DNA from: an uncultured bacterium
GTDB taxonomy: Bacteria; Cyanobacteriota; Cyanobacteriia; Cyanobacteriales; JAABRE01
Assembly: GCA_964413275.1 (NCBI GenBank)
Contig: CAYPSO010000008.1
Coordinates: 4,565 to 68,564, forward strand
Reading direction: 5' to 3'
Length of the DNA: 64,000 bases
Part shown: piece after piece, positions 10,152 to 64,000 of the stretch
How the letters are laid out: each line of letters starts with the position of its first letter
Position numbering within the stretch: position 1 is the stretch's first letter
Position numbers and translations under genes: made by a program
Notes under the pieces: model-generated
The model's database searches: none
The model's input: the letters and a program-made list of their open reading frames with translations, nothing else
What the model was told of the DNA's origin: nothing

Positions 10152-10247
10152 TGGACTGTTTCAACTAAAATAGGGCAATAGATTGTCTTTATGATTTGGT
10201 GGGCATTGCCCACCCTACTAATGCACACTTTTAACTGAAACAGTCCA
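10152..10247. mobile_element. MITE-like element, family C (TGGACTGTTTCA...TGAAACAGTCCA), carrying an inner GGTGGGCATTGCCCACCCTAC hairpin
   Basis: Inverted termini at 10153-10163 / 10236-10246. A partial copy of one arm is at 29289..29317. Confidence 0.6.
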
Positions 10248-28174: not shown

Positions 28175-28190
28175 AAAAAAAGAAAAAATG

Positions 28191-28257
28191 GTAGGGTGGG
28201 CAAATATGTTTAAATACCTGATTAAAATAATTATGGTTAATAATTTGCCCACCCTAC
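28191..28257. mobile_element. MITE-like element, family A (GTAGGGTGGGCAAAT...ATTTGCCCACCCTAC)
   Basis: Near-perfect 15-bp terminal inverted repeats with an AT-rich interior. Confidence 0.7.
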
Positions 28258-28430
28258 ACCGATTAATTTTACTTTTATGATGTTTCACACACAAAGAAAA
28301 TTTGCTTAGTTATTAGTTATTTGTTATTTCATTTGACGTATTCTACAAGAAAGGGGATCGAGCTTGCTTGCGCTATTATGCGCTATTAATTTAATTTTTG
28401 AATGATCAACTCAAAAAAGAAAAAATGGTT

Positions 28431-49033: not shown

Positions 49034-49071
49034 GTGATAGCAGTTTTCTCTTATTTAGATCATATTGCGTT

Positions 49072-49137
49072 TAGGGTGGGCAAATTATTAATTATAGTTG
49101 TTTGAATCCCGTATTTAAAAATATTTGCCCACCCTAC
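49072..49137. mobile_element. MITE-like element, family A (TAGGGTGGGCAAAT...ATTTGCCCACCCTAC)
   Basis: Terminal inverted repeats as in 28191..28257. Confidence 0.7.
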
Positions 49138-49530
49138 CAATTTTATTTGTGGTTCATCCAATTGAAAAGCTTAATTTATTACTATATAGCAACTTAATAT
49201 TTAATAAACCAATTGAATTATAGCTAGTGAAAAACGTGAATTTTTATTTTGGGACTTACACTTACTTAAAGCTACTTAAGTATTAATATTTTTACTATGT
49301 GTTCAAAAAAAGTCGATTTTTTTATAACTCAGTAAAGATACTGGTAATGCATTTTTTTTATTACATTAAATACTTAAAAAAATACATCCTACCTAGTTAA
49401 TTACGGTTTAATACCTAGGTAAGAAAAACTGATAAAAAGATTTAGTAAACTTGGGAATATTGTATTTTTTATTGTTAACTTAGATGATAGTAAACAAAAA
49501 TTATATTACTTACGTAGTTACGAGTAAAAA

Positions 49531-50677: not shown

Positions 50678-53143
50678 CTACTTAAATCCAAATTTGACTT
50701 TAAAATTCGGATCGACTTCTGCCCATTTACTAATATCAATTCCTTGGGAATGGGCTTGTTTTATTTCATTTTTGTTGGCAGTGTAACTAATTTTTTCACT
50801 ACGATATTCGGATGGTAATTCTTCTGCTTTAACTTTTAATTCTACTTTAGGATAAGCGGTAAAAGATAGTTTTCGTTCGTTACCAATGACTTTTTGGGCT
50901 AAAATACCTTGTAAATACCAAATTTTCAATTGTTGATGTAGCAATTGTTGTCCTTGTTTTAATTCGTTTAATTGCTCTTCTAAAATGTTTTTAACAGTTT
51001 TTAGTTTGGCATCTAAAGAGGCAATCGCCATTTCATATTGGTCATTTACCCATGCGATCGCATCTATATCTAAATTAACACTTTCCAATAATTTAATCAT
51101 ATCAGTTTCTGTTTGAGCTAATTGTAAATTTTCCCAAAGAGATTGCCCAATTTCGCTAAAATTTTGATGTAGCTCAATCACTGTTTGCTTTTCCTGAATT
51201 GAACTATTTTCCACAGTTTTGGCAACTTCTGCTAAGGATTGATGATAATGACTATTGATAGGTGCATTCAAATCATCTAACTCTTGACCTAAAATTTCTG
51301 CTAAAAAATTTTGTTGAATTTGGTTTAATTGTTCCTCATAAATACCAATAATAGCTGCGGCAGACTGCATTTTACGAGTTTGATAAATCTTGGTTAAATC
51401 TTGCAATAATTCTCGACGTATTTCCATTGATAAATGCAAATCTAAAAAACCCGATACTTGAGTATAAAAACGATTTATTTTCTCATCTAAAATATATTTT
51501 TGTTTATAGTTACCGGCATAGATCGCAATAGTAACTTTTTCTAAACAAGTTTGACCACTTAAATATTTGACAATTTCCATCATCATCCCAAGAGCCGCCT
51601 GCTCTGGGGAAACTTGGGTGCTACCTGTGACTAAAGCCGGAAAAGCAATGGAGCGCACCCCTTGAGCTTCAGCTAAATCCAAACAGCGTCGAGTTACTTT
51701 TTGGATTAAATCTGCATTAGTCAATTCTGGATTTTCGTAATCTAAAACTATAGCATGAAACAAATATTCAGCAGACAAATTGCCAGCAGTGGTAATGGCA
51801 ACTTGCCCTAATTGTTTGGGAGTGCGGCGTTGTGCTTCCTCACGAATAACCTTACCTCCGGCTTTGAGTAAAGATGCGGAAACTCCTCCTCCCATAGATA
51901 AATAAATATCATCAGAACTAACTAACACATCCGCTTGTATTTTGGTAATATCTTTATATTCGACGTTTAAGGTAGCTTGACCAATATTTTTAACCAAAAC
52001 TATTTTTTCCAGATTCTCAGGAGTAAGTGGAGGATAATTAACTGTTTTGACTTGAGGATTAATCGCCAAATTATGTAAAGATTGCCAAGTTAAAGGTTGA
52101 GTAGCGGGATTTTGGCAAATTACAGGTAGCCAAGTGGCACAAGGATATTTTTTTTCTAAAGGTTGCAGTTTTTCTCGTGCTTGTCTCACGCTGAGATAAA
52201 GACTTTCACCCTTCGCAAAAGCAGTAAGAAATTCTCTGAGAAATCTTTGGGCAATAATGTCAGGTACAATTTCCCGCATGACAATAATTTGGGATAGTTG
52301 CAAGGTTTCCAGGGCTTGAGCTAAACCTAAACCATCACAGGAGTTAAAAATAGCTAGTCGCAAACCATTATGAATTGCTTTAGTGAGAGCATTTTTTAAT
52401 TCGGTAATAGTAAGGAAATCTGTCGTATTAATTTGGAATTGCCCTTGGGAGTTACTATGCCCGGCAAAAAATAGAATATCCCAAGATTCTTCGTAGAGAT
52501 AATCGTTAAGTTGTTGTCTGCTAGGATTAATGAGAAAATAAGGCTCCGCATCGGATAAGGAAGCAATGATTTGTTTGTCTGTGTCAATGTCGATGCCTGT
52601 GTTGTTACCAAGAATAGCTAGAATTTTGATGGCATTGCGATTACTAGCATTCAAATTAACCGTAGCATATTCAGCAGGACTAAGAGCAACTTCGGCTCTA
52701 GGGTGAGAGTCTAAAAAGGATTCAAAAAAAATATGCCAAGGAAGACGACGTAAAGTTAAGTCTTGAGTTTGTACTAAAAGCCTAATTTCTTCATTATTAT
52801 TCACTTCTGAGAGAAGTTTTTCCCTAACTTTAGCGAGGGTTTGTGAGTTATACCACTTATTTAATTGTTGCTTGAGATTGTCGGCGTGATTTTGACAGGA
52901 ATGGGAAATATTAGTAATTTGTATGATGGGCGCACCGAGTCTAACTTCCGTACTGAGGTTACGATAATTATGCTGCCAAGTTTGATAATTTTGAGATAGG
53001 GTGGGTAAAGGTGGCAATTTTCCTTTAACTATAGTAAAGGGATGAGTAATTGATTCTGGATCATCTTCAGCAATTTGAAGATTAATCGGAAAACCACTAT
53101 CAAAGTTGCCATCTTCTAAGCGAAAAATGATTAGTTTGCCCAC
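50678..53143 (-). CDS. CHAT (caspase-like) protease domain fused to a Macro (ADP-ribose-binding/hydrolase) domain and a coiled-coil C-terminal region
   Basis: 821 aa. His-Cys dyad context ILFFAGHS (His229) and AIFNSCDG (Cys269). Macro block at about aa 385-545 (DITKIQADVLVSSDD..MGGGVSASLLKAGG...AITTAGNL..YLFHAIV...RSIAFPALVTG). The remainder is heptad-rich. Confidence 0.75.
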   Translation of the reverse strand: MGKLIIFRLEDGNFDSGFPINLQIAEDDPESITHPFTIVKGKLPPLPTLSQNYQTWQHNYRNLSTEVRLGAPIIQITNISHSCQNHADNLKQQLNKWYNSQTLAKVREKLLSEVNNNEEIRLLVQTQDLTLRRLPWHIFFESFLDSHPRAEVALSPAEYATVNLNASNRNAIKILAILGNNTGIDIDTDKQIIASLSDAEPYFLINPSRQQLNDYLYEESWDILFFAGHSNSQGQFQINTTDFLTITELKNALTKAIHNGLRLAIFNSCDGLGLAQALETLQLSQIIVMREIVPDIIAQRFLREFLTAFAKGESLYLSVRQAREKLQPLEKKYPCATWLPVICQNPATQPLTWQSLHNLAINPQVKTVNYPPLTPENLEKIVLVKNIGQATLNVEYKDITKIQADVLVSSDDIYLSMGGGVSASLLKAGGKVIREEAQRRTPKQLGQVAITTAGNLSAEYLFHAIVLDYENPELTNADLIQKVTRRCLDLAEAQGVRSIAFPALVTGSTQVSPEQAALGMMMEIVKYLSGQTCLEKVTIAIYAGNYKQKYILDEKINRFYTQVSGFLDLHLSMEIRRELLQDLTKIYQTRKMQSAAAIIGIYEEQLNQIQQNFLAEILGQELDDLNAPINSHYHQSLAEVAKTVENSSIQEKQTVIELHQNFSEIGQSLWENLQLAQTETDMIKLLESVNLDIDAIAWVNDQYEMAIASLDAKLKTVKNILEEQLNELKQGQQLLHQQLKIWYLQGILAQKVIGNERKLSFTAYPKVELKVKAEELPSEYRSEKISYTANKNEIKQAHSQGIDISKWAEVDPNFKVKFGFK

Positions 53144-53709: not shown

Positions 53710-54867
53710 TTATATTAATTTTGATATTTTTTGAACAGTTTGAATAATTATTTTTGCTGCTTGTTCGATTTCTGATGCGGTAGTAAATTTACCAATACCT
53801 ATTCTTAATGCACCCTCAATTATTTCCTCGTCAAGATTCATTGCTCTTAAGACATGAGAAGGAGCTTCAACCCCAGATGAGCAAGCAGCACCGGTCGAAA
53901 TAGCTAGTTTATCTCTAATTCTGGCAATAATGGCACTATTGGGAATATTTGGTATAGAGATATGTAAATTACCAGCTAAACGATTATTTATATCTCCATT
54001 AATAACTAAATCGGGAATTTCTGATTCTAGTAAATTTTGTAATTTATCTCGTAAAAAAGCGATCCTTTTTTCATCTTTTTGCATTTCTAAGTGACGTAAA
54101 TGACAAGCTTCCCCTAAACCAACAATTCCGGGTACATTTAAAGTACCAGAGCGCAATCCATTTTGATGTCCACCACCATAAATCATCGGTTTTAAATAAT
54201 AATCTTTTTTAATTATTAATGCACCAATACCTTTAGGAGCATATAATTTATGACCAGAAATAGTTAAATAAGTAATACCCCAATCTTGAAAATTAATCGG
54301 AATTTTCCCTACTGCTTGAGACGCATCACATAAGAAAGGAATCTGATATTTTTGGGCAATTTTACTAATATTTTGAATCGGGTAAATAGTGCCTACTTCA
54401 TTATTCGCAGCCATGACACATAATAAAGAAGCACCCATTGAACAAATTTCTTCTAAATATTCTAAATCAAGGCGGGCTTTTCGATCTATTTTTAACCAGA
54501 TTATTTCCGTTAATCCTTTTTTTGTTAATACTTCAAAAGTATCCAAAACTGCTTTATGTTCGACTGGTAAAACTATTAAACGAGCAGGTTGAAAATTGTT
54601 AATATTTTTGTTAATTTTTCCTTGAATTACTAAATTAATGCTTTCCGTTGCACCACTGGTAAAAATAATTTCTTGAGGTGATGAATTTATTAAGTTTGCT
54701 ATTTGTTTTTTTGCTTGAATTACAGCTTTTTTTGCTTCATTGCCATAGAGATGATCCACACTATTGGCATTACCAAAATCTGTAGTCATGTAATATAAAA
54801 CTTTTTCTGCAACTCTTAAATCTACAGGCGTGGTTGCCTGATAATCAAGATAAATTGGGTTAGACAT
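53710..54867 (-). CDS. NifS/IscS-type cysteine desulfurase (class V aminotransferase)
   Basis: Start taken at MSNPIYLDYQATTP. PLP lysine in SGHKLYAPKG. Catalytic Cys loop STGAACSSG. Confidence 0.9.
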   Translation of the reverse strand: MSNPIYLDYQATTPVDLRVAEKVLYYMTTDFGNANSVDHLYGNEAKKAVIQAKKQIANLINSSPQEIIFTSGATESINLVIQGKINKNINNFQPARLIVLPVEHKAVLDTFEVLTKKGLTEIIWLKIDRKARLDLEYLEEICSMGASLLCVMAANNEVGTIYPIQNISKIAQKYQIPFLCDASQAVGKIPINFQDWGITYLTISGHKLYAPKGIGALIIKKDYYLKPMIYGGGHQNGLRSGTLNVPGIVGLGEACHLRHLEMQKDEKRIAFLRDKLQNLLESEIPDLVINGDINNRLAGNLHISIPNIPNSAIIARIRDKLAISTGAACSSGVEAPSHVLRAMNLDEEIIEGALRIGIGKFTTASEIEQAAKIIIQTVQKISKLI

Positions 54868-54943
54868 TCTAATTGATTTTAAAATCTTTATCAGCAATTA
54901 TTGTAAAATAAATTTAGTGTAATATTCATAAAATATTTAAGCC

Positions 54944-55165
54944 ATGATTAAAACTTTTACTGCTTATATTGAGTACGATTCAGAAACTAAATTGTATGTA
55001 GGCATTATTCCATCTCTTAGAGGAGTTCATTCTCAAGGTGCAACCTTAGATGAATTACAGCATAATTTAAAAGAAGTTTTAGAGTTATGTTTGGAAGAAT
55101 CTGAAGAAGATTGGAGTAATTTGCCTCAGTTTATAGGTATTCAACAAATTGAGGTTGCTTTATGA
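54944..55165 (+). CDS. hicB: HicB-family (UPF0150) antitoxin
   Basis: 73 aa; FTAYIEYDSETKLYVGIIPSLRGVHSQGATLDELQHNLKEVLELCLEE. Confidence 0.7.
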   Translation: MIKTFTAYIEYDSETKLYVGIIPSLRGVHSQGATLDELQHNLKEVLELCLEESEEDWSNLPQFIGIQQIEVAL

Positions 55166-55395
55166 GTCGCTTACCAATTGTTAACTATAAAACAGTTAAT
55201 AAACTATTAATAAAATTGGGATTTTCAATAATTAGACAAAAGGGAAGTCATGGTTTTTATCGTCATCCTGATGGGAGAACAACAACTGTACCAAATCATC
55301 AAGGTAGAGATTTAGCAAGACCATTATTAAGAGAAATTTTAAGAGAAATTAAATTAACGGTTGATGAATTTAATGAGGAATTACAAAATCTTTGA
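55162..55395 (+). CDS. hicA: HicA-family mRNA interferase toxin
   Basis: 77 aa; LIKLGFSIIRQKGSHGFYRHPDGRTTTVPNHQGRDL. 4-nt ATGA overlap with hicB. Confidence 0.8.
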   Translation: MSRLPIVNYKTVNKLLIKLGFSIIRQKGSHGFYRHPDGRTTTVPNHQGRDLARPLLREILREIKLTVDEFNEELQNL

Positions 55396-55433: not shown

Positions 55434-56885
55434 TTATTTGACATCAACATAAATATCTTTTTCATATTGTTTAAATTCATCATCAAGGTTATATAATAAA
55501 TTACGTATTTGTTGACGGAGTAGTCTAGCAGGATTTAAACAATCTCGTTGATAATCTTGTATGGTTAATTCAAGATGAGGGTAAAGAAGTTTTAAAAATC
55601 CTGATGCAGTTTTAAGAATTGCTTGTTGGTCTCTAATTGTTGCATTATTATCGAATTGAGTATGTTGTTGAACATATTGATAAAAGCGGTTATCTTTTCT
55701 TAATGATAATAAGGCTTCTCCAAAAAAGTCCATTTTAAAACCTGTTTGACTCGCTATCATTTCTCTTTGAAATTTAGGAATTTCCCAACCGGGTAAAATA
55801 CCAGCAAAACGATCTAAAAATGCTGTTTCTGAGAAAAATTTAGGTAAATTAGCCATTAAATTATATTCATTTTTAGGAAGTTGATATTCATCTAATTCAA
55901 TATTTCCTAATAATACTAAAGAGCAATCACTAGCAATATCAGCAAATCCAGAACGATTATAACGTCCATTTGCTAGATAAGTTTTTAAGGGTCCGATAAT
56001 TTCATCAGGATTATCAAATGTTAAACTTTGAACTTCATCTAATACTACGACATCATAACGTCCTAATAAACCGACTTCTTTGGTTTTGCCATCAATAAAT
56101 AATTTAGCAGGGGTTATTTTACCACCACTAACTACAGAAACTTTATTATTTATATTCTCATAGACAAAGCTTTTTCCTGTTCCTTTGGGGGCTAATTCTA
56201 TTAGATGATAGTTAGATTCTAGCAAGGGTAATAAACGAGTTAATATCCATGTTTTAGCCTTATAAGTATAACTAGAATGTTCGGGATTAAAACCCATTGA
56301 ACAAAACATTAAATCTCGCCATTCGTCTATGGTAAATTGAGAACGAAATTGGGCATAAATTTTGAGATCAACTTCGGAACATTGAAAGGGATCGAAATCT
56401 ATGACAGATACTTTAAATTTACCATCTATAGTATTTTTATATCTTAAAGTTATTTTCCCCCAAACTCCTTGTCTTAATAACATTTGATAACGTTCTACAA
56501 TATCTGTCGAAATTTCACAATCTGATAAATTTAAAATAGGAATATTAGCTAAAGGTTCGGGTATTTGTTTGGCATTATTATCTAATTTGATTCTGACTTG
56601 AAGCAAGGCAATTAATTTATATATTTCTCCTTGAGTTAGTTGAAATTTAATCACTTCTTGATCATCTTTTCTGGGAAATGCTTTTTGCACAAAAGTATTA
56701 ATTTTTTCTTTTTCAATATCAGTTAAAATTCCTGTGCCATGTACAATTTTATCTAGTAACCATTCAGCAACAAAACTAGGCACTCCTAATGTAGTTAATC
56801 CACTTGAAGGTAAGCGTTTTTTATCAATACTTAGTGATTTACATACCTTAGTAACTAAGTCGCTGTTATAATTAGAAAAAGTCAT
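55434..56885 (-). CDS. TIGR02688-type AAA+ ATPase (short BrxL-like, no Lon protease domain)
   Basis: 483 aa. N-terminal LGVPSFVAEWLLDKIV as in BrxL N-domains. Walker A APKGTGKSF. Walker B DVVVLDEVQS. Confidence 0.65.
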   Translation of the reverse strand: MTFSNYNSDLVTKVCKSLSIDKKRLPSSGLTTLGVPSFVAEWLLDKIVHGTGILTDIEKEKINTFVQKAFPRKDDQEVIKFQLTQGEIYKLIALLQVRIKLDNNAKQIPEPLANIPILNLSDCEISTDIVERYQMLLRQGVWGKITLRYKNTIDGKFKVSVIDFDPFQCSEVDLKIYAQFRSQFTIDEWRDLMFCSMGFNPEHSSYTYKAKTWILTRLLPLLESNYHLIELAPKGTGKSFVYENINNKVSVVSGGKITPAKLFIDGKTKEVGLLGRYDVVVLDEVQSLTFDNPDEIIGPLKTYLANGRYNRSGFADIASDCSLVLLGNIELDEYQLPKNEYNLMANLPKFFSETAFLDRFAGILPGWEIPKFQREMIASQTGFKMDFFGEALLSLRKDNRFYQYVQQHTQFDNNATIRDQQAILKTASGFLKLLYPHLELTIQDYQRDCLNPARLLRQQIRNLLYNLDDEFKQYEKDIYVDVK

Positions 56886-58134
56886 CTAAACCTCCTTGAA
56901 TACCGCTATTAAAGACTTGTTTAATAGTTATTTGTGAGTCTGGATTAAGATTAAATTCTCCTGATTCATTGTTGGCAAATATAAAAGTTATTTTACCTGA
57001 TAATTGAATATTATCTTTATCTTTATTAATAGGTAATTCTGGACATTGATTAATAGATATTTCGTGAGTAATTTTTTCATTAGATTTAATAGTTATATCT
57101 AACATTTTTCCTGTTTTTAATTCAGGATAATTTTTAACTATCCAATTGACAAAACTATCAGCTAATTTTTCACTAATTTGCTCTTCTTTCGGGAGAATAT
57201 TAATAGTTGTTTCCCATTTCCTGAAGGGTAAATAAGATTCAGTAGCCCATTTTAAAGCATCTTGAGAACTAGCATTTATTGACAAAGGTAAAGGTTTTTG
57301 AGGCGGTAATTTTTCTTGTAATTGAAATATTTTTTGATTAGTTAAATAAACACTAATTTTAGTAATTATTTCTTGAGTAAGCCAACTAGGATTATTTAAC
57401 AAAATTTCATAAGCAAGATTGGCAATTATTTGATTACCTGTTTGTTGGGGTAACATTAATCGATCTAAAATTTTCCCTTCACTTTGATAAATTTTTTCTT
57501 GCCAAAATTCCCAAAATTTTGCTTTACAAATATCAGGAATGTCTAAAGGATATGTCCCTAATTCCTTAATAATTTGATCGTCATTATTTAACCCTAACCA
57601 ACTTTTTAATAGTTGCTCTTTATTTTTAACTTGATAATAGTTGAGTAAATGATGATGATGATTATTAGTAATATAATTTAGCCAAACATCTGCAACTATT
57701 TTATATTCTTGAGGAATTATAATAGATAACCATTGAGCTAAATGTTTTACTGATAAGTTATCAATTAGCCAAAAAGATTCTTCAGTATTAGTTACATCAG
57801 CTAATAAGTATTCAATTTTGTGATTTGAGGCATAACTATCAAGCTGAGTAACAACTTGTAAAATGTGCAAATCATCCCAATTATCAGGAATAGATATAGG
57901 AGTAAAAATAGCTTCTAATTTTAAACGTGGGTTTTGTTTTTTTTCAATTATTAAGTCAGATTTTTGCCAAACTCTTAACCATTCTTCTGTCCAATTACAG
58001 AGTTGTTTACCCTTAATCCAATAAGCATCATTTTTAAGGGTCAAATATTTTAACCATTCTACTTCTGTAGTAATAACAATATACTCACCAAGAGCTTTAT
58101 ATAATCCAGTAGGATCTAAAATAATTTTACTCAT
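56872..58134 (-). CDS. 420-aa protein of unknown function, translationally coupled on both sides
   Basis: No motif recognised (no PglZ phosphatase or PP-loop motif). Its start overlaps the Uma2 stop by 8 nt and its stop overlaps the AAA+ start by 14 nt. Confidence 0.5.
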   Translation of the reverse strand: MSKIILDPTGLYKALGEYIVITTEVEWLKYLTLKNDAYWIKGKQLCNWTEEWLRVWQKSDLIIEKKQNPRLKLEAIFTPISIPDNWDDLHILQVVTQLDSYASNHKIEYLLADVTNTEESFWLIDNLSVKHLAQWLSIIIPQEYKIVADVWLNYITNNHHHHLLNYYQVKNKEQLLKSWLGLNNDDQIIKELGTYPLDIPDICKAKFWEFWQEKIYQSEGKILDRLMLPQQTGNQIIANLAYEILLNNPSWLTQEIITKISVYLTNQKIFQLQEKLPPQKPLPLSINASSQDALKWATESYLPFRKWETTINILPKEEQISEKLADSFVNWIVKNYPELKTGKMLDITIKSNEKITHEISINQCPELPINKDKDNIQLSGKITFIFANNESGEFNLNPDSQITIKQVFNSGIQGGLDDFF

Positions 58135-58714
58135 TATGAAAATCTACTTTATCATAAATATCAATTAAGGAAATTTCAAAATTAATTTTCTCAAAAATAA
58201 TTAAATCTTTTTCTGTATTATATTCTCTAAATAACCATTGATTTTTATCGGTTCTACTATAATGATCTATTTGCAATTTATATTGATCGATTAACAAATA
58301 TTCACAAAAATTTTCTATACTACGATAAGCAGAAAATTTCTGATCTTTGTCATAACTACGGGTAGATTTAGATAAAACTTCAATGATAATATAAGCATTA
58401 ATTAAAGTATCTTTTCTTCCTTCTTGAAATTGTAAGTCATCTTTAATAATCATAATATCGGGATAGGTATAAATTTCATAATTAGGTATCCAGAGACGTT
58501 GATCGGCAACAAATACTTGAAAAGGTTGTTTTTTAAGGGCAAAATTTAATGCCGCATACAAGTTTCCAGCTATTTTATTATGATTAGGTGTACCCCCTGT
58601 CATTTTAATAATTTCTCCTTTAATATATTCATGACGATCATTACTATTAATTTCTAAATCAAAATATTCATTAATAGTATAAATTTTGGTTTTGTCTAAG
58701 ATTGCTTTTGTCAT
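58127..58714 (-). CDS. Uma2 family endonuclease-like protein embedded in the defence-type operon
   Basis: 195 aa; HEYIKGEIIKMTGGTPNH, YPDIMII, IIIEVLSKST, K..AY. A different subfamily from the other four copies. Confidence 0.8.
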   Translation of the reverse strand: MTKAILDKTKIYTINEYFDLEINSNDRHEYIKGEIIKMTGGTPNHNKIAGNLYAALNFALKKQPFQVFVADQRLWIPNYEIYTYPDIMIIKDDLQFQEGRKDTLINAYIIIEVLSKSTRSYDKDQKFSAYRSIENFCEYLLIDQYKLQIDHYSRTDKNQWLFREYNTEKDLIIFEKINFEISLIDIYDKVDFHNE

Positions 58715-58787
58715 AATTATTAACCTTTATTTTATAAGTTTTCCCATTAAAAGATAACTTTAGTATAACTTAATTATAGTCAATCTT

Positions 58788-58855
58788 GTAGGGTGGGCAA
58801 AGCTTCCACAAATTATAAAATTAAGACTAAAATTATTTTTGCTTTGCCACCTTAC
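58788..58855. mobile_element. MITE-like element, family A (GTAGGGTGGGCAAAG...CTTTGCCACCTTAC)
   Basis: Its end abuts (1 nt) the stop codon 58856-58858 of the ATPase fragment. Confidence 0.65.
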
Positions 58856-60059
58856 TTATTCTAAATATTGTGTTAATTTGTCATATAATTTTTGTTTTCT
58901 TTCAAGGGGAAGTTGATTAAATAAAGTAATAATTTGATTCTCTTCACTTTCAGTTTGAATCCTTATACATTGAGTTTGAACTTTGTCTAATAGATTTTTC
59001 TCTGAATCACTTAAATAATTAATATGTACTGATTTATATTTATTAATACTTTTAAGCAAATTATCTACTAAATTAAGTTTTTCATCTTCTATTTGTTGCT
59101 CAATTTTAGTGAAGTTTTCGTTTAAATCATCTAACCATAATTTAGCATTAGCTTTATTTTTGTTTTCAATAGTTTCAATTTTTAAAGTTGGTAAAATATT
59201 ATCTGTAACTTCCACTTCATCTAGAAATTTTCGTAGAGAAAAAGGTTCGTCAGAAGTTAAAAAAGTAAATAAAGAGCGATCGTTTTGAGCGTAACGATAA
59301 CACAAAGTTGGTAATACTAAAGCTGTTAAAGGATGGAGGGGATAAACTTGTTCTAAAATGCTTTTATCAATTTCTTCTGCTATTAAAATAGGCCGTAATT
59401 TTTCATACCATTCTTGAGCATAATTATTAATTCGACAAGCAATAACTTCGGATTTAGTGCGATCGATTGCTTGTCCCATCAAACGCATCATTTGTCCGGT
59501 AGATTCAGTAAAAGGAATATCCTCAAATCTGCCTTGAATTTTTGCCCATTCATTGCGCTGTACTGTTGCTAATCTTTGTCCGTATTCGGTAAAAGCTTGA
59601 TGTAAAATACCTAAAATATAAACAATTATCTATACCGATAATCAAAGCTCTAATAATAGTATAACTAATTGCTTCTCTTTGTCCTGTTGCGATCGCTCTC
59701 AATCAACCTTGTTCTGGTATATTTTTTACCAAGGCTTGGTAATCATCATTTTCCAAGCTTAAAGTAGTTTCTGTAATGGTTAAAGCTTGTTGTTTAATTA
59801 ATTTTATTTGGGGAGCTAATAAAGATATAAAATAATGGGCAAAAGCAGATTTTCCCGTACCATAAACTCCCGTTAAAGTCCAGCAATTATTACTATTTTT
59901 ATTATTAAAACTTGTTAAAATTCGACGCAAAGTATCAAGAGCTTTTTCGGTGAGAATATACCCATCTAAAGCAGAACTATTATCTAAATCTCTTTCCAAA
60001 TTAATAGAGCGAGTATAACGACGTTCTAAACTAACATAATGAGACAATTTATAATTCAT
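58856..60059 (-). pseudogene. degraded P-loop NTPase of the BrxC/PglY/SspC-like (DUF499-like) type
   Basis: The N-terminal ORF has Walker A TGVYGTGKS and ends at an in-frame TGA (59703-59705). Reading continues LRAIATGQREAISYTII... to a frame break near 59608-59624. Then comes LGILHQAFTEYGQRLATVQRNEWAKIQGRFEDIPF and the 211-aa ORF with YPLHPLT...AQNDRSLFTFL. No Walker B segment was seen. Confidence 0.65.
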
Positions 60060-60105
60060 AATAAAAAAAACTAAGATATTTTCTCTATCTATAATACCTT
60101 AATCT

Positions 60106-60125
60106 GTAGGGTGGGCAATGCCCAC
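60106..60125. repeat. short hairpin form of MITE family A (GTAGGGTGGGCAATGCCCAC)
   Basis: Lies between the DUF4007 stop and the ATPase start. Confidence 0.65.
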
Positions 60126-60207
60126 AAATTTTTAATTCCAAAATTATTTTTTAATAATCAATTAATAATGAATCTTCTTAATATTTATTAGGTAATATTA
60201 CATCAGT

Positions 60208-61131
60208 CTAACTAACTTTATAATAATTATTAATAATTTCTAAAGCTAATTTTTCTGGTTGCTCTGGAAAAGATAATTGAATCAAACCTGCGCTATCAGA
60301 TAAAACAATAGATTTGTATTTTTTAGTAACAATTTCAATTGCTTCGTAAAGAGCATTTTCTGATAATTTAAAAACTACTCCGGGGCTACTTACATCATAT
60401 AATAAACGAGAAATACTAATAGTTTTTTCACTTTCTCGTATCCAGCTTGCATATTCTAAACAAGTGGCAACAATAATTTCTGAAGGTAAATCAGTTTTTG
60501 CACCAACTCGAAAACGATAATTAGAAGAGCTACGAACTTGATAAATTAAACCTAAATCTACAAAAGGACAATCAATAGAATCTTCCAAAATATTACCTTG
60601 TTTATCTTCAGATTGTACATACATTCGTAAAATACAGCTTAAATCTTTATTCAGAGAAGATTCAGCTACAGTTTTGTTAATCTCATCATGGTATTGATAT
60701 TCTTTTAATCCTTGAAAAATATTTTCACGGGAAAATTCAACTCGATTGAAACGATTAAAAACATAATACCATGCAGCAGCAGTACAAGTTGGCTTAAGCA
60801 AATTCCAATGTAATAACCATAAAGAAGCAGGATTTTCTAAATACTCATCCCAACCATTTTCACCTAATAAATTTCTGCCAAATTCTGAGGGGGTATCGTC
60901 ATCTTTAGTAATCTTAAAAGCATTGCACCAATAACGTATTGCTCGCACCATATTTTTCCCTACACCTAATTTTACAGGTGCATCGATCGCAAGAAAAATA
61001 CTAGAATCTAAATTAGCAGCATCAAAACCTTTTTTTAACCATCCCCAACGAGGATGAAAAGTTTCATGACGAGCAAAAATTGGATTAACGGGATTTGCTA
61101 ATATATTTAATTCAAGGGTTTTTTGAGACAT
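60208..61131 (-). CDS. DUF4007 family protein (SspB-like)
   Basis: 307 aa; FARHETFHPRWGWLKKGFDA and KLGVGKNMVRAIRYWCNAF match the DUF4007 N-terminal signature as I remember it. Confidence 0.65.
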   Translation of the reverse strand: MSQKTLELNILANPVNPIFARHETFHPRWGWLKKGFDAANLDSSIFLAIDAPVKLGVGKNMVRAIRYWCNAFKITKDDDTPSEFGRNLLGENGWDEYLENPASLWLLHWNLLKPTCTAAAWYYVFNRFNRVEFSRENIFQGLKEYQYHDEINKTVAESSLNKDLSCILRMYVQSEDKQGNILEDSIDCPFVDLGLIYQVRSSSNYRFRVGAKTDLPSEIIVATCLEYASWIRESEKTISISRLLYDVSSPGVVFKLSENALYEAIEIVTKKYKSIVLSDSAGLIQLSFPEQPEKLALEIINNYYKVS

Positions 61132-61222: not shown

Positions 61223-61474
61223 ATGCAAAATATAAATTATCACGATCTAAAGGAAAATTTGCCAGCACTTATAGAACAAATTGCTCATCAACATGAACCT
61301 TTATGTCTCGAATTACCTAATTCACTTAAAGCAATAATACTCTCGGAAGAAGATTATAGTAGTTTAATGGAAACTTTATATCTATTGACTAATCCAGTAA
61401 ATGTAGAAATATTACTAAAAGCTGCTAATCGTTATATCAGTGAAGCTATTGAGTGGCAAGAAGTTAAAAATTAA
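61223..61474 (+). CDS. Phd/YefM-family antitoxin, no adjacent toxin gene
   Basis: 83 aa; INYHDLKENLPALIEQI...AIILSEEDYSSLMETLYLL. Only 86 nt separate it from uvrB. Confidence 0.7.
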   Translation: MQNINYHDLKENLPALIEQIAHQHEPLCLELPNSLKAIILSEEDYSSLMETLYLLTNPVNVEILLKAANRYISEAIEWQEVKN

Positions 61475-63643: not shown

Positions 63644-63898
63644 TTAATAATGATAACGACACTGCACAATAATAATTTGTTCGTCTAAAACTTGATAAAT
63701 TAAACGGTGTTCCTGATTTATACGTCTTGACCATAATCCAGAAAAATCAAATTTTAGTGGTTCTGGTTTGCCGATACCTTCAAAAGGATTTGTTTGTATA
63801 TCTTTGATTAATTGATTAATTCGTTTTAAAGTTTTTTTGTCTTGATTTTGCCAATATATGTAATCTGCCCAACCATCCTCTAAAAATACAATCTTCAT
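63644..63898 (-). CDS. yoeB: YoeB/Txe-family toxin
   Basis: Start taken at MKIVFLEDGWADYIYW. Ends RINQEHRLIYQV...IIIVQCRYHY. Confidence 0.85.
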   Translation of the reverse strand: MKIVFLEDGWADYIYWQNQDKKTLKRINQLIKDIQTNPFEGIGKPEPLKFDFSGLWSRRINQEHRLIYQVLDEQIIIVQCRYHY

Positions 63899-63902
63899 TA
63901 AT

Positions 63903-64000
63903 TTATTCGTCTTCAATTAAATTATGTTGTTCGTATTGACCTTGTTTTAATTCGTCTAAGGCTTTATAAAGACGTTGAGCATTTTTAGGACTTCGTAATA
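63903..64000 (-). CDS. yefM: YefM-family antitoxin, 3' part (gene runs off the right edge)
   Basis: The minus-strand frame reads ...RSPKNAQRLYKALDELKQGQYEQHNLIEDE-stop (TAA 63903-63905), 4 nt upstream of the yoeB start. Confidence 0.6.
   Translation of the reverse strand, partial: LRSPKNAQRLYKALDELKQGQYEQHNLIEDE

Follow-up and report, generated by a model that had tools for sequence, protein, structure and literature searches.

A cyanobacterial locus that is probably the relic of a composite Ssp/BREX-type-4-like defence island

In an intact Ssp system, SspA supplies sulfur, while SspD (a protein of the PAPS, 3'-phosphoadenosine 5'-phosphosulfate, reductase fold), SspB (DUF4007) and the ATPase SspC write phosphorothioate on the host DNA; in the intact composite systems discussed below, unmarked DNA is restricted by SspE and/or by the trio BrxC'-PglZ-BrxL, BrxC' being a giant BrxC-like ATPase. 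The SspABCD-SspE phosphorothioate defence is reportedly that of Xiong et al. 2020, and type 4 BREX (bacteriophage exclusion) is said to be listed as BrxP-BrxC-PglZ-BrxL in the classification of Goldfarb et al. 2015. The locus that concerns us here lies in a 64-kb stretch of contig CAYPSO010000008.1 from an uncultured cyanobacterium (this whole stretch is called the window, and positions follow its numbering). It is very probably the relic of a composite cyanobacterial defence island, made of an Ssp phosphorothioation system and a BREX-type-4-like module. This kind of system is an already known architecture, of which the present copy is pseudogenised: cyanobacterial sspBCD genes adjoining brxCZL have been published (bioRxiv 10.1101/2024.06.03.597175, 'Phosphorothioate DNA modification by BREX Type 4 systems in the human gut microbiome'), and DUF4007 and a cysteine desulfurase are type-4 BREX components (PMC12839542).

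The pieces of the locus are the following (labels such as L001 denote compared loci, and labels such as P0002 denote proteins):

53710-54897, minus strand: intact cysteine desulfurase gene of the sspA/dndA type (PADLOC SspA E 3.4e-137, DndA E 7.5e-138; Aminotran_5 E 6.8e-69)
55434-56885, minus strand: intact brxL of the short type, 483 aa (TIGR02688, 464.6 bits against a cut-off of 329.3)
56872-58134, minus strand: 420-aa open reading frame (ORF), identified by BLASTP to P0002 as pglZ with an internal in-frame deletion of 945 nt
58127-58714, minus strand: Uma2 ORF, 195 aa (Pfam Uma2 PF05685 E 1.7e-33; PADLOC PDC-S03 E 2.5e-24)
58136-58856, minus strand: inserted Uma2 cassette of ~0.7 kb, delimited by comparing the junction with that of L001
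58862-59182, minus strand: 3' remnant of the gene for the BrxC-like giant ATPase (aa 1458-1564 of the 1572-aa L001 protein)
59168-59623, minus strand: middle remnant of sspC (SspC aa 239-390; tblastn with L066 SspC, 67% identity; blastn to L001 sspC)
59634-60062, minus strand: 5' remnant of sspC (SspC aa 1-146; tblastn with L066 SspC, 59% identity)
60208-61131, minus strand: intact sspB (DUF4007), 307 aa (Pfam DUF4007 E 6.8e-103; PADLOC SspB E 2.7e-123)

The region 55434-61131, in which the ORF list gives six minus-strand ORFs, had been singled out in a first-pass annotation as related to Ssp and BREX type 4, its P-loop ATPase being in a degraded state. That framing is correct, and the ORFs, coordinates and minus-strand domain calls on which it rested are all present in the ORF list and in the Pfam, NCBIfam and PADLOC results, as are the overlaps between neighbouring genes of 8 nt (58127-58134) and 14 nt (56872-56885). 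The limits were drawn too narrowly, for the SspA/DndA cysteine desulfurase at 53710-54897 belongs to the locus too. The annotation offered two explanations, a new effector module and plain decay of a BREX-4/Ssp locus, and it is the second that the evidence favours.

The surviving pieces stand in the order sspB, sspC, brxC' tail, pglZ, brxL, sspA. Through SspB-type relatives of the window DUF4007 protein one arrives at L065, a locus of Nostoc sp. 106C that overlaps L035, and the gene order there, sspB-sspC-sspD-sspE(GmrSD)-DUF4007'-p146-brxC'-pglZ-brxL-sspA (the prime marking a second DUF4007 gene), is collinear with every one of these pieces. This ten-gene island holds two DUF4007 paralogues, two ATPases of the SspC/BrxC family and one PAPS reductase, with SspE and BrxC'-PglZ-BrxL downstream; apparently its two restriction arms share one phosphorothioate writer. 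In Spirulina sp. CCY15215 (L001/L010) the order is sspC-sspD-(80 aa)-DUF4007-p150-brxC'-pglZ-brxL-sspA, and L066 is a plain sspB-sspC-sspD-sspE-sspA locus. The composite sspBCD(+sspE)/brxC-pglZ-brxL/sspA clusters of Nostoc and Spirulina thus share with the window not only gene order but also junction overlaps, and the Spirulina genes are 68-87% identical to those of the window at the protein level. The window differs from them in that sspC is reduced to about a quarter, that sspD, any sspE, DUF4007', p150, 93% of brxC' and the PglZ core are gone, and that Uma2 and hicBA genes have been added.

A genome scan, with genes mapped by tblastn, yielded 56 species-level loci of this family, 55 of them cyanobacterial. 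The five-gene core DUF4007'-p150-brxC'-pglZ-brxL is found in almost all of them, often flanked by sspD upstream and sspA downstream or with dndC nearby; in L005, L009, L011 and L057 it has no adjacent phosphorothioation genes. In the cyanobacterial module a protein of ~142-150 aa without any Pfam or PADLOC match is always encoded between DUF4007' and the BrxC-like ATPase (L001 4764-5216, L005 5871-6299, L006 4675-5118, L065 18406-18846); it is an uncharacterised core component that lies outside the classical type-4 BREX gene list. Two pglZ-brxL-sspA modules, L020 and L041, lie on one 63-kb contig of Nostoc sp. CMAA1605 (NZ_PJIZ01000017.1); in the L041 copy pglZ is frameshifted, and additional ORFs separate it from brxC'.

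With type 4 BREX the window has in common a short BrxL (TIGR02688), a PglZ-family gene, a BrxC-family ATPase remnant, DUF4007 and a cysteine desulfurase. Since it contains no PAPS reductase, BrxC or PglZ catalytic domain, it does not hold the set of genes that defines this type. Canonical type 4 BREX also often has PAPS reductase and DUF4007 fused as BrxP, whereas the cyanobacterial relatives encode the two separately and add the conserved ~150-aa protein. With SspABCD-SspE the window shares intact sspA and sspB, both strong PADLOC Ssp matches, and the sspB-sspC order of L066; its sspC is broken, however, and sspD and sspE are absent.

The key to the locus is the 420-aa protein, which had been taken for an orphan. 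It has indeed no Pfam or NCBIfam match, PF08665 included, and the sole early pointer to its nature was a weak PADLOC PglZ match (E 2.3e-5); it is nevertheless no orphan, being homologous to PglZ at both ends. A search of 5.8 billion proteins brought up 36 relatives, nearly all of ~730 aa and many with the PglZ domain PF08665. The closest, P0002 of Spirulina sp. CCY15215, is a 735-aa protein labelled 'PglZ domain-containing protein' at NCBI. In BLASTP, residues 1-340 of the window protein align with residues 1-337 of P0002 (68% identity) and residues 338-420 with 653-735 (57%); the same two-block alignment is seen against a homologue of 44% identity, and when 1.84 billion representatives were searched exhaustively with HMMER, residues ~1-345 of the query matched the N-termini of proteins of ~720-745 aa. 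The DNA tells the same story, window 58136-57101 corresponding to L001 9999-11023 and window 57124-55437 to L001 11956-13646. At the junction (57115-57124), which reads TATCCTGAATTAAAAACAGGAAAAATG, the left parent ...GAATTAAAAATAGAT... passes into the right parent ...GATTTTAAAACAGGAAAAATG; the 945 nt missing between them keep the reading frame and are flanked by TTAAAA microhomologies. The 420-aa protein is PglZ aa 1-337 + 653-735, its catalytic core having been cut out in frame.

The part equivalent to P0002 residues 338-652, with the PglZ alkaline-phosphatase-fold domain (PF08665), is missing between two clearly PglZ-homologous flanks. In an alignment of 18 sequences, all 29 invariant or near-invariant core columns (P0002 369-596) are gapped in the window protein, the lost blocks including DGLG, PTKTEYAKW, SDHG and GSHGGLFPEE. 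When a profile of this alignment was compared with the PDB, only PorX-type PglZ domains were found, at profile positions 359-424, that is, inside the deleted part. AlphaFold (AF2) models residues 1-340 as mostly helical with a pLDDT (predicted local distance difference test) of ~88 and residues 341-420 with low confidence; a Foldseek search of this model against the PDB gave no match at E<=0.001, hence no solved fold for the N-terminal domain. In six larger proteins of 1534-1586 aa (P0160, P0161, P0164, P0169, P0170 and P0174) the PglZ N-terminal region starts at about residue 800-860; in these ~1550-aa proteins an upstream protein may be naturally fused to PglZ, or else the gene calls may have read through.

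The first-pass annotation had itself named what would speak against a new module: an end-to-end alignment of the 420-aa protein with the N-terminal half of PglZ proteins and, in close relatives, an intact locus at the syntenic site. The N-terminal half does align, and the C-terminal tail with it, and relatives carry intact loci, so that the new module essentially fails by this yardstick. A shared chromosomal position could not be demonstrated for the intact loci, as the closest PglZ in the databases searched, identical copies aside, is 68% identical and has flanks unlike those of the window.

At the other end of the locus, the 307-aa SspB covers positions 2-295 of the 295 of its PADLOC profile and shares 69% identity, along its entire length, with the SspB of the intact sspB-sspC-sspD-sspE locus L066. 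The gene that follows it was probed with the 1159-aa SspC of L066. Its 5' remnant retains the Walker A motif GVYGTGKS, and an in-frame TGA at 59703-59705, within the alignment, closes an ORF of 118 aa (59703-60059; PADLOC SspC E 1.1e-33, profile positions 2-103 of 1104). The middle remnant reads in another frame, with the frameshift near 59630, and SspC aa 147-238 (~92 codons) are deleted out of frame between the two. Of an intact SspC (~1100-1170 aa) there remain only aa 1-146, with the internal stop, and aa 239-390 of 1159.

The ATPase that had been called degraded is broken indeed; the 211-aa fragment (58856-59491) on which this was based, however, is a chimera of two different genes. It matches positions 257-367 of the 1104 of the PADLOC SspC profile and runs on into the end of brxC', which in L001 encodes a BrxC-like ATPase of 1572 aa and lies before pglZ. 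This 3' remnant matches the L001 protein in tblastn with 53% identity (E 4e-28), and window 59169-58863 matches L001 9674-9980, the end of brxC', with 75% identity over 307 nt in blastn; the proteins align too. An intact P-loop ATPase of the BrxC/PglY family is therefore lacking, only aa 1458-1564 of 1572 being left, joined to the SspC fragment. The 211-aa ORF is an in-frame chimera of SspC residues 239-390 and the last ~107 residues of the BrxC-like protein; a single deletion, with its junction at ~59175, thus brought sspC codon ~390 and brxC' codon ~1458 together without loss of the reading frame.

It had been observed earlier that no PAPS-reductase gene is adjacent to these ORFs. This holds for the whole window: tblastn with SspD (from two sources) and DndC queries gave nothing at E<=1e-3, and no ORF of the BrxP, SspD or DndC kind lies in 53-62 kb. 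Neither sspD nor sspE, DUF4007', p150, dndC or dndD is found by tblastn anywhere in the 64 kb. As SspC and SspD are gone, writing of phosphorothioate should no longer be possible; restriction should have ceased too, for lack of BrxC' and of the PglZ active site. Loss of the restriction half would be expected once the modification half was lost, because a restriction arm with nothing to oppose it would probably do harm.

The Uma2 gene occupies the place that brxC' should hold in front of pglZ. Its product scores 116 bits against a PF05685 cut-off of 27 and is a full-length member of the Uma2/DUF820 family of PD-(D/E)xK proteins (the PADLOC candidate family PDC-S03), with a predicted nuclease role. 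In L001 the undisturbed brxC'/pglZ junction reads ...CAATACTTGTCTAAAGAGGAGAAAATTAATGAGTAAAATT, and the window instead holds the cassette between CAATATTTAGAA and AATGAGTAAAATT. Within the cassette, an intergenic stretch that carries a dispersed palindromic repeat comes first and the Uma2 ORF second. The final Uma2 codons and stop, AAT GAG TAA, are those of the ancestral brxC' end, and the Uma2 and L001 BrxC' proteins both end in ...NE. The Uma2 gene is a later insertion, exactly at the old brxC'/pglZ junction.

The overlaps of 8 nt and 14 nt had been put forward as the sign of a new co-translated unit. Both turn out to be ancestral, at the brxC'/pglZ and pglZ/brxL junctions, respectively. In L001 the brxC' end ...AAAATTAATGAGTAA overlaps the pglZ start ATGAGTAAA by 8 nt, and the same overlap exists in Aphanizomenon L007; the 14-nt pglZ/brxL overlap recurs in L001, L005 and L006. 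Since the Uma2 ORF closes on the ancestral brxC' stop, its 8-nt overlap with pglZ was inherited. Uma2 adjoins pglZ or brxL in none of the 56 other species-level loci mapped by tblastn; the two Uma2 matches found among them (L007, L058) lie 8-9 kb off, and there is no second Uma2 gene within the window. Genes of this family occur in multiple copies, dispersed over the genomes of cyanobacteria (PMC9403480; PMC3424549), and a position inside a brx operon is unique to the lineage of the window.

The last two genes are undamaged. The 483-aa BrxL covers positions 3-448 of the 449 of TIGR02688, carries the domains BrxL_N (PF20442) and BrxL_ATPase (PF13337) without a Lon-protease C-terminal domain, matches PADLOC BrxL at E 4.9e-134 and aligns along its entire length with the BrxL of intact loci at 84-87% identity. 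The long-BrxL model TIGR02653 is matched only at positions 30-454 of 675, with a score under its cut-off. Given this and the near-complete TIGR02688 match, its shortness is the norm of the family, and the protein is no truncated long BrxL. The cysteine desulfurase covers positions 1-373 of the 374 of the PADLOC SspA profile and is 71% identical to the product of the sspA that follows brxL in L001; it is the last gene of the ancestral locus. Between it and brxL lies an insert that L001, L013, L016, L023, L035 and others do not have:

54944-55395, plus strand: hicB-hicA toxin-antitoxin pair (Pfam HicB_lk_antitox/UPF0150; HicA_toxin E 1.6e-18)

The history of the locus can be read as follows. The ancestor, known or presumed from the relatives, would have combined an SspABCD(-SspE) phosphorothioation module with a BREX-type-4-like set of DUF4007', the ~150-aa protein, the BrxC-like giant ATPase, PglZ and short BrxL. 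The sspC gene has suffered a nonsense codon and an out-of-frame deletion of ~92 codons, and a big in-frame deletion, which left of brxC' the final ~107 codons and starts after sspC codon ~390, took the rest of sspC, sspD and all that lay between; its size may have been ~9-11 kb if the ancestor resembled the Nostoc sp. 106C island. The ~0.7-kb Uma2 cassette entered the brxC'/pglZ junction, the PglZ catalytic core was lost by the 945-nt in-frame deletion, and hicBA was inserted before sspA. The PglZ stub and brxL would thereby have kept their ancestral translational-coupling overlaps, with Uma2 taking the place of brxC' in the chain.

Decay of this operon is not confined to the window, and has occurred independently in other species (L007, L026, L038, L041, L049, L061 and L062). 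In Aphanizomenon sp. PH219 (L007/L008) an independent in-frame deletion removed PglZ aa 162-577 and left brxL in place; there is no Uma2 at the brxC'/pglZ junction of this strain. Six of the seven large deletions known to us in the brxC'-pglZ-brxL family are in frame (binomial P ~0.007 at a chance rate of 1/3), namely the window pglZ deletion, the window sspC::brxC' fusion, that of L007, the PglZ::BrxL fusion ORF of L026 (925 aa), the fusion ORF of L038 (636 aa) and the BrxC'::PglZ fusion of L062. The lone exception is the deletion of sspC aa 147-238 in the window. The simplest reading is that at each deletion there may have been selection against polarity on the translationally coupled genes downstream. 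One can go further and see, in this bias and in the recurrent in-frame removal of the PglZ core with brxL kept, selection for a stripped-down unit in which the PglZ N-terminal domain and BrxL act on, with the captured Uma2 as effector; we think this very improbable.

Several observations weigh against mere decay. Five ORFs (sspB, Uma2, the PglZ stub, brxL and sspA) are still intact, both of the largest deletions of the locus are in frame, and the Uma2 ORF ends precisely on the ancestral stop, overlap included. Those PglZ segments that remain (58-75% identity) diverge no more than intact homologues do among themselves; either the stub arose recently or it is under constraint to this day, and relative rates fit both. 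Lastly, the phosphorothioation genes could sit elsewhere in the genome, beyond the 64 kb.

A rival proposal takes Uma2, the 420-aa protein as an adaptor, and short BrxL to be a novel working effector module, translated together, that arose out of a BREX-4/Ssp locus. Its three ORFs are intact and overlapping, Uma2 is in frame with the ancestral stop, the remnants are not fast-evolving, the in-frame PglZ deletion would leave an N-terminal domain that is modelled with confidence, the PglZ core was lost in frame a second time, with brxL kept, in Aphanizomenon sp. PH219, and the Uma2 relatives make up a candidate defence family. Against this, the last 80 residues of the stub are modelled at low confidence, the overlaps are inherited rather than newly evolved, and the nonsense codon, frameshift and two insertions around the trio are typical of decay. 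A gene-neighbourhood census had been suggested for finding the trio in other cyanobacteria; the exact arrangement, with an identical 420-aa product, was found in a single population only (three assemblies from two runs, SRR3310977 and SRR3311162, of one stromatolite metagenome project). Considering also that the 420-aa protein is a deleted PglZ, that Uma2 is beside pglZ or brxL in no other locus, nor at the Aphanizomenon junction, and that Uma2 genes are scattered in cyanobacteria anyway, the proposal is unsupported and very unlikely to be right.

It is highly improbable, too, that sspB, sspA and brxL still work with phosphorothioation or BREX genes located elsewhere in the genome, the locus being then a partly redundant spare. 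The three genes are full length and well conserved, two brx modules do coexist in some cyanobacterial genomes such as that of Nostoc sp. CMAA1605, with L020 and L041 on one contig, the five-gene core can stand without adjacent phosphorothioation genes, as in the four loci mentioned above, and some genomes hold both dnd and ssp clusters (bioRxiv 10.1101/2024.06.03.597175). Nothing in the window, however, supplies the missing parts, and there is no evidence of cross-talk between separate loci. That the deletions were produced by the assembly (through collapsed repeats or chimeric contigs), as a metagenome source and a pglZ junction in an A/T-rich short repeat might suggest, can practically be dismissed, since gene order and 420-aa product are the same in the three assemblies from both runs and the junctions are single clean events with homology running on at both sides.

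Decay of a composite island therefore stays our preferred reading. Being a pseudogenised copy of a published architecture, the locus is of no weight as a defence system. It is a base-pair-resolved example of the dismantling of a modification-restriction island, in which both halves were hit, and the mostly in-frame large deletions of its operon family hint at selection against polar effects on coupled downstream genes. It also calls for caution, as in-frame deletions, and insertions that inherit stop and overlap signals, can yield intact overlapping ORFs and a domain-less 'orphan'.

The palindromic repeat of the cassette also occurs beside the sspC remnant:

60105-60121, minus strand: copy of the palindromic intergenic repeat, GTGGGCAATGCCCACCCTACA; a second copy, at 58787-58803, lies inside the Uma2 cassette

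Its core, GCCCACCCTACA, has 9 copies in the window, against 0.03 expected (repeat family D3). The copy beside sspC was considered as a mobile-element boundary or transposon end, and this was rejected, the repeat being a dispersed intergenic palindrome. The repeat has the form (G)GTGGGCAATGCCCACCCTAC, and further copies are at 10208, 14323, 28190/28247, 33551 and 49070/49127; the pairs at 28190-28258 and 49070-49138 make up inverted-repeat elements of ~70 bp that carry the motif at either end, and have the look of a MITE (miniature inverted-repeat transposable element) or REP (repetitive extragenic palindromic) element. Rfam and tRNA scans of 45/50-64 kb gave no RNA element and no tRNA integration site, and a promoter/terminator scan gave 38 promoter-like sites where 38.7 were expected.

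Besides hicBA, other toxin-antitoxin genes are found nearby: a lone Phd/YefM antitoxin gene at 61223-61474 (plus strand), by uvrB and without an adjoining toxin, and a YoeB toxin gene at 63644-63916 (minus strand), at the edge of the window. Immediately downstream, a glyoxalase-fold gene separates the locus from the gene of an 821-aa protein, at 50678-53143 (minus strand), with a CHAT protease, a Macro domain (ADP-ribose-binding or -hydrolysing) and a C-terminal Gp157-like region; this CHAT-Macro gene is possibly a separate defence or effector gene.

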